A stretch of 64,000 bases of DNA, taken from positions 11,224,001 through 11,288,000 of the forward strand of contig NW_024704743.1 of NCBI RefSeq assembly GCF_018977255.1. The letters are read 5' to 3'. The stretch is from Callorhinchus milii. Its lineage: Eukaryota. Position 1 is the stretch's first letter, and each line of letters opens with the position of its first letter. The position numbers and the translations under genes are program-made. The notes under the pieces are model-generated. The model saw only the letters and a program-made list of their open reading frames with translations. It had not been told where the DNA came from and did no database searches. Shown in pieces: positions 1,895-5,000 of the stretch.

Positions 1895-2047
1895 CTCCAC
1901 TATGACATTGAGAGCTGTATCACAACCAATGCACAAATCGGTGCCTGGCACATTATTACTTATGGTAACAGGCACCATACAGACTGGGATGCAAAACTCA
2001 TCGTATTTTTCACGTGCTTCACGTAATTGCAGCAAACCTTCAAAAGC
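1895..2047 (-). CDS. PFKP: PFK exon 16b (153 nt, PFKL-like variant) [51 protein letters not shown]
   Basis: gtccag|GCT...GAG|gtaagt; TISNN motif; phase 0-0. Confidence 0.9.
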
Positions 2048-5000
2048 CTGGACTTTCAGTACAAAAGCAATTAGTGTTTGGTGACCTACAGACACACAGA
2101 TGAGTGTGACTTATATCATATCACTTTAGTTGTGATGAGGTTTGGCTTCCCATTGGCAAACACTGAAATGCCACAGCTATTGAATATAAAAATGCATTCA
2201 AGTGCACAAAGGTGGTTAAAACCAATGAATTTGCAGCTGGAAAGTTCACATTGGGAGGTTCAGCCTGAAGCAAGTTTGAACGATATTGGGACTACCAGTG
2301 AAGTCTGAACAGGAAAGGAACAGTTAGTGACAAAAAGGTTTGGCATGTTAGTTTGTCAGGCAACATTTCATTACAATCCTCAAACTGCTAACTGGAAATG
2401 AAATGCATCATTGGAATGGAACGATGAAGTTTGATCCTTCAATGTCAGCTCTTCCTACCATTGTGAAGCAGAAATCACCAAGCATTGGATTGTTCACCCA
2501 TTAACAGAGGATATGAGCTGGGTTTAAACAATTGTGAGTCAGGTTAGTTTGACGCTACTGTTGATGTGTTGTTGCAATAGCAATCCTGCTCAGTAATATT
2601 AATCCCGTTTTTCACCTAAATGCAAGCCATAAGAATTTTGAACTCAATCCTCTGAGGGATGGGGAGCCAGTGGAGCTGGACAAGGGTGGGTGTGATGGGG
2701 TCATAGAGTCTGGTGCGGGAGAGGACACAAGCTGCAGAGTTTTGGATGATCTGCAGCTTGTGGAGGGAAAAGTTGGGAAGATCAACAAGCATAGTCGAGC
2801 CTGGAAGTCAAAGCGGGTCACGGAACGGATGTTGGGGCGAAAGGACAGTTGAAGGTCGAACAAGATCCCTAGGTTCCCTAGTGCCTGGTGAAGTGAAGTG
2901 TGCATACGTGGATGCTGATGCTGCCAGTGCCTGAGGTGCGGAGGCGCTGGCGCGAGCCAATCAAGAGAGCCTCATTCAACTGTAGAAAGGTGGCTCTCAT
3001 CCAGGACTTTTTGTCTGACCTGGGATTGAGGGTGGAGGCAGAGAGGTAGGATTGGGTGTCATTCGTGTATATGTGGAATTTGACCCCACGTCAGCAGAAG
3101 ACGTCACCAAGAGGGTTGAAGAGGTTGAAGAAGAGAGGACTGAGGACAGAACCCTGAGAAGAACCACACGAGACAGTGCGGGGGCTGGAGGAGAAACCAA
3201 AGTGCAGCCGGTGTGAGAGATAGGATAGGAGGTGAGAGGAGAGGCAGTGAAGAGAGGTCCACAGTGTCAAAGGCAGCAGAGAGGTCGAGGAGGACATGGA
3301 GAAAAGGAGCAGCAGGAGAGGAAGGAGTGAAGCTGGGAAGCTACAACTCTTTCAAGGATCTTGGAAAGGAAAGGGAGGCTGGAGATGGGGCGGTAGTTAA
3401 TGAGCAGGGATGGGTCCAGGGAAGGTTGTTTTTTGGGGGGTTGGGGTGATTCTAATACCTCTCTTGCATGAAAATATTTCTTCATCTTCCCCACCCTCTT
3501 TTTACTATTCCAGTGACAACCCTGATCTCTTATTACCAATTTATTTACAAGCCTTTAGAGAAATTAATTTTGTACAAAGGTATTTTCCAGAAATTGATTG
3601 CAAAATATGAATACGTATGACTTTGAGATGAAATGTTTTCACAGTTTTAGGAAATTGACAAAAATGTTGCCAGGTTAATAGTTTCCTATTAGTACGCAAA
3701 CTAGATGCAGTTATTATTTTAAACCGCAAAACTCAATTAATAGATCAGGCTGCCCAAGGCAAAGCAGTGACAGACACAGCAAACATGTTCATGCTTTACA
3801 ACATGCATGAATTTACTTACCTCAGATCAATATTAGCTACACCATTATATACCAGCACAAACCACCAAACTATAGGCAACAAAAGTTTTACTTTTTCCTT
3901 CTTCAGTTTTTGAATAATTTTTGATCTGAGCTCCAAAATGTTTTTTTTAATGTAATGTATCCAATTATTATTCTAATTTTCTCCCCATTTACATATGTTC
4001 CTTGACCCCAGTCTCCCCTTGCCAGTGGTCACTCTTCACGTGTGAGCCTTGGCAGTGAGCTTTGGGAGGCCACTTGACTGCTGAGACCGGCATAACCAAA
4101 ATTGTCCTTTTCAAACAGAGTTGAGGAAACACTTCTTCACTCAGAGGGTAGTGAATTTATGGAATTCCCTACCCCAGAAGGCTGTAAATGCTCAGTCCTT
4201 GAACATATTCAAGAACGAGATGGATAGATTTCTAAAGGATAGGGGGATTAAGGGATATGGGGATAAGGCGGGCAGATGGAATTAGGTTAGAAGATCAGCC
4301 ATGATCTTATTCAATGGCAGGGCAGGCTCGAGGGGCCGAATGGCCTTCTCCTGCTCCTAATTCCTATTGACCTCTCCCCACTCAGCTGCCACACACATAT
4401 AGACCTAGTAGAGGGTTGCAAGAGGGATGAGGAGCAGGAACTCTGTCTGATATTACCCATCTTAACCCTGGGGAAGCTAGGGCCAATTCAGTCTCCCCAT
4501 GAGACCCCGGCTGAAACCTGCAAACTCCTTTCAGACCAGGAGTCGATTCAAAGAACTCATGGACAATAAACTGCAGCTTCAGCTTTGAGTTTGAGCTAGA
4601 CTTTATCAGTCCTACTGTAATACATTTAATCCAACTGAAATGGAAATGACCCGCCCGACACTTATAGAGGGTTCAGGTCTATGGTTATCAGTTGGTGCTG
4701 GTAGGTAAGCCATATAGCTGAAGGAATCCCAAGTCTCTTTGGAGTCATCGTGTTAGTATTGAAATCACATTTTCCTCAACAGACTTACATCAGTAATAGC
4801 GTTCAGGGCTGTATCTGCACCAATGCTGAAGTCTGAACCAGGCACATTGTTGGAGACAGTGGCAGGAACCATAACCATGGGGATACAGAACTCGTCATAC
4901 TTGGCACGCGCAGCTAACAGTTCCAAAAGTCCCAGGTATGCCTACAAGGCACAGCCAGATTAGTTTATATTCAAATATGTAAATTAGGAGACATGGTAAA

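Follow-up and report, generated by a model that had tools for sequence, protein, structure and literature searches.

Human PFKP provides the closest described system. Its isoforms PFKP-203 and PFKP-205 (ENST00000381125 and ENST00000413079) differ by V539I at the fructose-bisphosphate effector site, and the I form is predicted to be the better binder, with FBP as the ligand of that prediction (Lam 2021, PMC7954323; bioRxiv 10.1101/292813). The pair is tabulated as event 155, two 51-aa exons with Chordata as last common ancestor and a blank proteomics cell (Martinez Gomez 2021, PMC8373072), and is also covered by PMC9741552; the human b exon in event 155 carries I29, C23, T36 and E51. PKM exons 9 and 10 (PKM1/PKM2) are likewise homologous and arranged in tandem, belong to a glycolytic enzyme under regulation and touch fructose-bisphosphate allostery; the effect of switching in PKM is measured and large, whereas that in PFKP is predicted and involves one pocket residue. 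In the CACNA1F/CACNA1S and FYN families (PMC9741552) both exons survive in one paralogue and a single exon in each of the others, as appears to be the case for PFKP, PFKM and PFKL. The texts searched do not give PFK as an example, and the link between PFKL and the b exon consists of shared ancestral states rather than a proven clade. Tandem alternative exons are also present in the Pfk genes of Drosophila and other invertebrates, in clusters classed as 'different region, convergent' with respect to the human event. Passages of PMC11030362, PMC12613645 and bioRxiv 10.64898/2026.10.21.760529 deal with matters other than the PFKP exon-16 pair, and a 2026 PFKP review gave no match for 'splic'.

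The window analysed here, a 64,000-nt stretch of the elephant shark (Callorhinchus milii) genome, contains, on its minus strand, the greater part of a phosphofructokinase gene, which proteins named Callorhinchus milii PFKP match residue for residue. Its exons, as mapped from database proteins, run from position 60864 down to 1895, with exon 17 and later exons just left of the window (Table 1). Exons 16a and 16b are each of phase 0/0 with an AG acceptor and a GTAAGT donor, and are identical at 34/51 amino acids and 92/153 nucleotides. Both match PFK1 structures at E < 1e-20, so their likeness is not due to chance; the best PDB matches are PFKP. In homology, adjacency, matching length and phase, and valid splice sites, the two fit the pattern of tandem mutually exclusive exons. 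A genome search for exon 16 gave four scored candidates, namely 16a, 16b and one exon copy each in PFKL (contig C6) and PFKM (contig C27). The peptides, the cysteine counts (one in 16a, four in 16b) and the 16b acceptor string given in an earlier note on this DNA were exact. That note also called the pyrimidine tract of the 16b acceptor weak, which holds (10/17 pyrimidines at -20 to -4, in a range of 9-16 across the 17 exons scored), but 16a is equally weak (10/17), so that 16b is not singled out.

Table 1. Features of the elephant shark PFKP gene, in window positions
Feature	Position	Strand	Remarks
Exon 8a	50561-50656	minus	96 nt; PFKL/PFKM-type (RGSRL)
Exon 8b	50187-50282	minus	96 nt; human-PFKP-type (KKRL)
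Cassette exon	29078-29125	minus	48 nt; encodes a basic 16-aa insert
Exon 15, constitutive, upstream	8731..8818	minus	ends in GGFE; three more pocket residues (G508-E510)
ACTAAT before 16a acceptor	4959..4964	minus	branch-point-like; motif match
Exon 16a	4941-4789	minus	153 nt, 51 aa; V at 539 position; form in solved human PFKP structures
TVSNN codons of 16a	4846..4860	minus	human PFKP 538-542; four F2,6BP contacts
Intron between 16a and 16b	2048..4788	minus	2741 nt; GT-AG both ends
TACTAAC	4752..4758	minus	about 31 nt downstream of 16a donor; candidate QKI site
ACTAAT before 16b acceptor	2070..2075	minus	branch-point-like; motif match
Exon 16b	2047-1895	minus	153 nt, 51 aa; PFKL-like or ancestral states I539, C533, T546, E561
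TISNN codons of 16b	1952..1966	minus	I at 539 position, as PFKL
Three GCATG motifs (two as overlapping TGCATG)	1766..1819	minus	76-125 nt downstream of 16b; candidate RBFOX enhancer

The elephant shark and human pairs are alike in gene, in the 51-aa exon, in the order a then b, in V539I and in the proposed effect at the effector site. The shark b copy differs from the human one in having two extra cysteines (positions 39 and 42) and V at position 27, and the shark gene also keeps an exon 8a/8b pair, which is unseen in fetched tetrapod PFKP proteins. Compared by eye, outside the tree described below, the human b exon shares I29, C23, T36 and E51 with the shark b exon. The shark pair corresponds to event 155 in gene, position and order, the a and b states are fixed in 122 pairs (below), and a clade uniting the a and b copies is rejected, all of which identify the two events as orthologous. 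The exon pair and the activator idea are already known from human, and the elephant shark adds one species; what is added here is modest, namely junctions from a cartilaginous fish, a PFKL-like reading of 16b, a likely partition of the two exons between PFKM and PFKL, and the exon-8 pair. We regard it as probable that this is the known ancient PFKP exon-16 pair, that exon 15 is connected to exon 17 through one copy or the other to give two enzymes of the same length with a likely modest allosteric difference, and that 16b would, by prediction, shift the fructose-2,6-bisphosphate (F2,6BP) pocket toward that of the liver isozyme through V539I.

Conservation of the two copies was assessed in 122 database proteins in which both are present exactly 51 residues apart (seven further rows were off-pattern and were left out); the set spans ray, sturgeon, bowfin, teleosts, amphibians, turtles, a crocodilian, squamates, birds and ruminants. 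Every one of these proteins (122/122) has T28, S30, N31 and N32 in the a and the b copy alike, whereas exon position 29 is V in all 122 a copies and I in all 122 b copies. The 16b exon is intact, with its diagnostic residues invariant across jawed vertebrates. Elsewhere in the fetched proteins, two fluke models (P0093, P0211) and one teleost model (P0092) repeat the exon-16 region with identical copies, which suggests assembly or annotation artefacts rather than exon pairs.

In the human PFKP contact table, 19 residues touch F2,6BP (PMC7702303). Exon 16 holds four of these (T538, V539, S540 and N542) and the other 15 lie outside the exon; V539I is the sole pocket contact that differs between 16a and 16b. 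The assignment of TxSNN as the counterpart of the catalytic SIDND, with a role in F2,6BP binding, was borne out, in that the two segments align and TxSNN contains all four exon contacts. The further statement that the exons swap this module was not: T, S, N and N are invariant in both copies, 15/19 pocket residues are elsewhere, and only V/I539 changes. Similarly, the serine at exon position 30 does correspond to PFKL S529, an O-GlcNAc site (PMC7702303), but it is present in both copies and hence is not exchanged. As in a PKM-like switch, the swapped exon does carry a differing effector-site residue, one of its four contacts.

Residue 539 is V in PFKM and PFKP and I in PFKL (PMC7702303); judged by alignment, 16b gives PFKP the PFKL pocket residue. 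According to the same paper, three pocket residues differ between L and P. In the alignment given there, M583 and G584 (in ETMGG) are the same in all three isozymes, and 98/102 fetched PFKL rows give TMG at 583-585, with no other triplet in any row. From these sequences, V539I thus seems to be the one genuine difference between the L and P pockets. The M583 and G584 substitutions in Supplementary Table 6 of PMC7702303 fit positions 593-594 by that paper's own alignment. The AC50 for F2,6BP is given there as 0.17 uM for PFKL, 6.27 for PFKM and 9.13 for PFKP; older values tabulated in the same source put PFKM (0.05) equal to PFKL (0.05) and PFKP at 4.5, and another set of values has PFKL equal to PFKP in F2,6BP sensitivity. 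Because the paralogue values disagree between studies, V539I alone may not set sensitivity. The change from V to I is moreover conservative, which counts against the pocket explanation.

A model of the 16b isoform had a pLDDT of 87 overall and 92-97 over the exon, which forms a helix, a strand, the TISNN loop and a second helix, with C23 on a predicted core beta strand (525-530); a single-sequence fold (pLDDT 35) was of no use. PFKP chains in the PDB alignments carry 16a. By way of I539, inclusion of 16b would move the F2,6BP pocket toward the liver isozyme, and it is plausible that the two isoforms differ in activator response, as predicted by the earlier note. PFK1 gates glycolysis, and human PFKP has been studied almost only as the 16a form; if true, a PFKL-like gain in F2,6BP response in the b form would amount to a PKM1/PKM2-style switch for PFKP.

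Because most of the a/b differences cluster at exon positions 2-16, the functional difference could instead lie on the surface, where the variable helix and loop (exon positions 9-16) would alter filaments, hetero-tetramers or partner binding. This is the chief alternative site of action. In PFKL, filament interface 1 is built from residues 511-520, equivalent to exon positions 12-21, together with loop 693-705 (PMC11345425), and an F/Y-x-N motif in this second loop is kept by 169/191 fetched GGAPSPFDRN rows (mostly PFKP, some PFKL), with human PFKP lacking it. On the other hand, those exon positions differ greatly from one b copy to the next, whereas I29 and C23 are invariant, and by PMC7702303 T558 is the sole residue of the exon in interface 1, with none in the tetramer interface. 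We consider a surface role unlikely to account for the pair, and favor the predicted pocket difference.

Splice junctions were sought in assembled contigs of seven runs (X1-X7) out of 13 listed; none of the 13 is on record as RNA, and the RNA status of the seven is a guess. Such contigs drop rare forms. The joint of exon 15 to 16a was found in runs X1, X3 and X4, and the X4 contig continues past 16a into sequence that, read by hand, is the start of exon 17 (a loose end). The joint of exon 15 to 16b was found in one 1047-nt X6 contig, which skips 16a, has 88 and 152 letters on either side of the joint and continues to exon 17. Run X5 gave two parallel 211-nt contigs, one per copy, each joined to exon 17, and in X2 16a and 16b were present as separate pieces; X7 had no cover of either exon among the listed matches, which is not evidence either way. 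All of the joints listed have intron-type CT..AC ends, several exon-17 joints having just 28-30 letters on the short side, and no joint of 16a to 16b was among them. Each copy is thus spliced alone to both flanking exons, insofar as the contigs are RNA, and the alternative use of the pair proposed in the earlier note is supported. These junctions also rule out 16b as a pseudo-exon or processed copy. The runs differ in which single-copy path assembles. Strict exclusion, with 16a and 16b never included together, is at most likely, since the listing of joints was incomplete, contigs lose rare forms and annotated models with both copies exist.

A minor or leaky 16b exon, often included along with 16a and with little role at the protein level, would account for the many gene models in the database with both copies, one of them from elephant shark. 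It would also be compatible with the absence of peptide evidence from the human event 155 listing (PMC8373072), with the somewhat greater variability of the b copies (mean pairwise 0.80, versus 0.83 for a copies), and with exclusion not being forced by frame, spacing or splice-site class. The number of double-copy models is inflated, however, since protein searches rank such models first by summing two matches. Further, X6 assembles 15-16b-17 without 16a and X5 assembles both single-copy paths, and the b copy is intact with diagnostic residues invariant across jawed vertebrates. We judge this reading very unlikely, and return to a pair in which each copy is used in its own right.

The four cysteines of elephant shark 16b are largely specific to its lineage, with one extra cysteine, C23, conserved: b copies have 2-4 cysteines and a copies one in 121/122 cases, C23 occurs in 122/122 b copies and never in a copies, and C39 and C42 occur in 1/122 and 10/122 b copies, respectively. 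C42 is common in invertebrate and fungal rows and so is ancestral, not an innovation. That 16b is a redox-sensitive isoform by virtue of its extra cysteines, as the earlier note had ventured from the four-to-one count in elephant shark, is very unlikely, because C39 and C42 are rare and the sole conserved b-specific cysteine, C23, which is also present in 102/102 fetched PFKL rows, is on a predicted core strand (525-530) and hence probably buried.

A tree of the exon alone (51 rows and 51 columns, so few columns) grouped PFKM with the 16a copies at 100/100 and rejected an a + b clade (p-AU 0.012); a clade of b copies with PFKL was not rejected (0.43) and rests on states shared with invertebrates. 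At sites where a and b have the same residue, 11/34 codons are identical, as low as between separate PFK genes, which indicates that the duplication is old. A recent, PFKP-specific duplication is ruled out by the exon tree and the saturated-looking synonymous sites. The grouping of PFKM with 16a, together with rejection of the a + b clade, suggests that duplication predated the split of PFKM and PFKP, in agreement with the published Chordata date. A tree of the rest of the protein (24 rows and 687 columns, without exons 8 and 16, PFKM being represented by two partial rows) gave (P,(M,L)) at 96/92; P+M and P+L were not rejected (p-AU 0.188 and 0.166). The duplication would then be older than the PFKM/PFKP split and probably older than the PFKL split as well, and PFKM likely retained a and PFKL b. 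Given a PFKL-like gain in F2,6BP sensitivity in the b form, the difference between the liver and muscle isozymes would be explained in part by the distribution of ancestral exons between them. No cyclostome or invertebrate-chordate PFK was among the matches listed. A statement of this PFKM/PFKL partition of the PFKP pair was not found in the literature searched, which was mostly non-subscription; a term search showed PFK to be absent from PMC4494069, and PMC12203962 had no match for exon or splicing.

The same gene contains a second pair, exons 8a and 8b, separated by an intron of 278 nt. Exon 8a matches PFKM at 26/32 and PFKL at 25/32 residues, and 8b matches human PFKP; the two differ at predicted residues of AMP/ADP site A, for which R262-L266 are listed (PMC7702303). 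Both exon-8 types are found in PFKP proteins of cartilaginous and ray-finned fish (sturgeon, bowfin, teleost), while fetched tetrapod PFKP rows had 8b and none had 8a; a literature search turned up no paper on exon-8 splicing of zebrafish PFKP. A more ambitious scheme, which we find doubtful, would take both pairs as relics of an ancestral vertebrate PFK1 with splice switches at two activator sites, the F2,6BP pocket (exon 16) and AMP/ADP site A (exon 8); PFKM would have frozen 16a and PFKL 16b, both with the 8a type, fish PFKP would have kept both switches, and 16b would make PFKP, including human PFKP-205, PFKL-like with much higher F2,6BP sensitivity, given that V539I seems to be the one genuine L-versus-P pocket difference.

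Other variants of the gene lie outside these pairs. The cassette exon in Table 1 falls in the linker that joins the catalytic half to the regulatory one, and is present in some annotated isoforms only. Left of the window, elephant shark PFKP (locus L006, 5098-5205, minus strand) keeps F-x-N where F700 and N702 of PFKL form a filament interface, and human PFKP has lost the Asn; from sequence, non-mammalian PFKP might form filaments. At an exon acceptor there (L006, about 5205-5211), annotated isoforms differ by two residues (DE), adjoining the loop that matches PFKL 693-705, which suggests an alternative splice site 6 nt away.

Three simple ways of enforcing a choice between 16a and 16b can be set aside. 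The 2741-nt intron is too long for steric exclusion, each copy has 51 codons, which leaves no basis for exclusion by frame or NMD, and the GTAAGT donors at both exons rule out a U2/U12 incompatibility. Window 1-8900 gave 42 inverted repeats, and the 25 longest of these offered no convincing docking-site/selector pairing at either of the splice sites. A single 17-nt arm, immediately upstream of the branch motif of 16a, has a length expected by chance. Exon choice would accordingly fall to trans-acting factors, rather than to frame, spacing or RNA pairing, with the GCATG cluster after 16b as candidate RBFOX sites. We take this cluster to be an RBFOX-type motif with a candidate function. In the 300 nt downstream of each of the other 16 exons scored, GCATG occurs at most once, and three or more occur in 11/1274 overlapping 300-nt windows. 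A literature search gave no relevant paper on RBFOX-linked choice of PFKP isoforms, and one on splicing of PFKP exon 16 gave unrelated papers. TACTAAC after the 16a donor is presumably a QKI-type motif, again a candidate by function, as presumably is ACTAAT before the 16b acceptor; TACTAAY occurs four times on the minus strand of the window. The introns around the pair also contain high-copy interspersed repeats, at about 45-250, 2638-2791, 6777-7330 and 8033-8152 of the window, which stand out by very high contig depth and as direct repeats D1 and D2.
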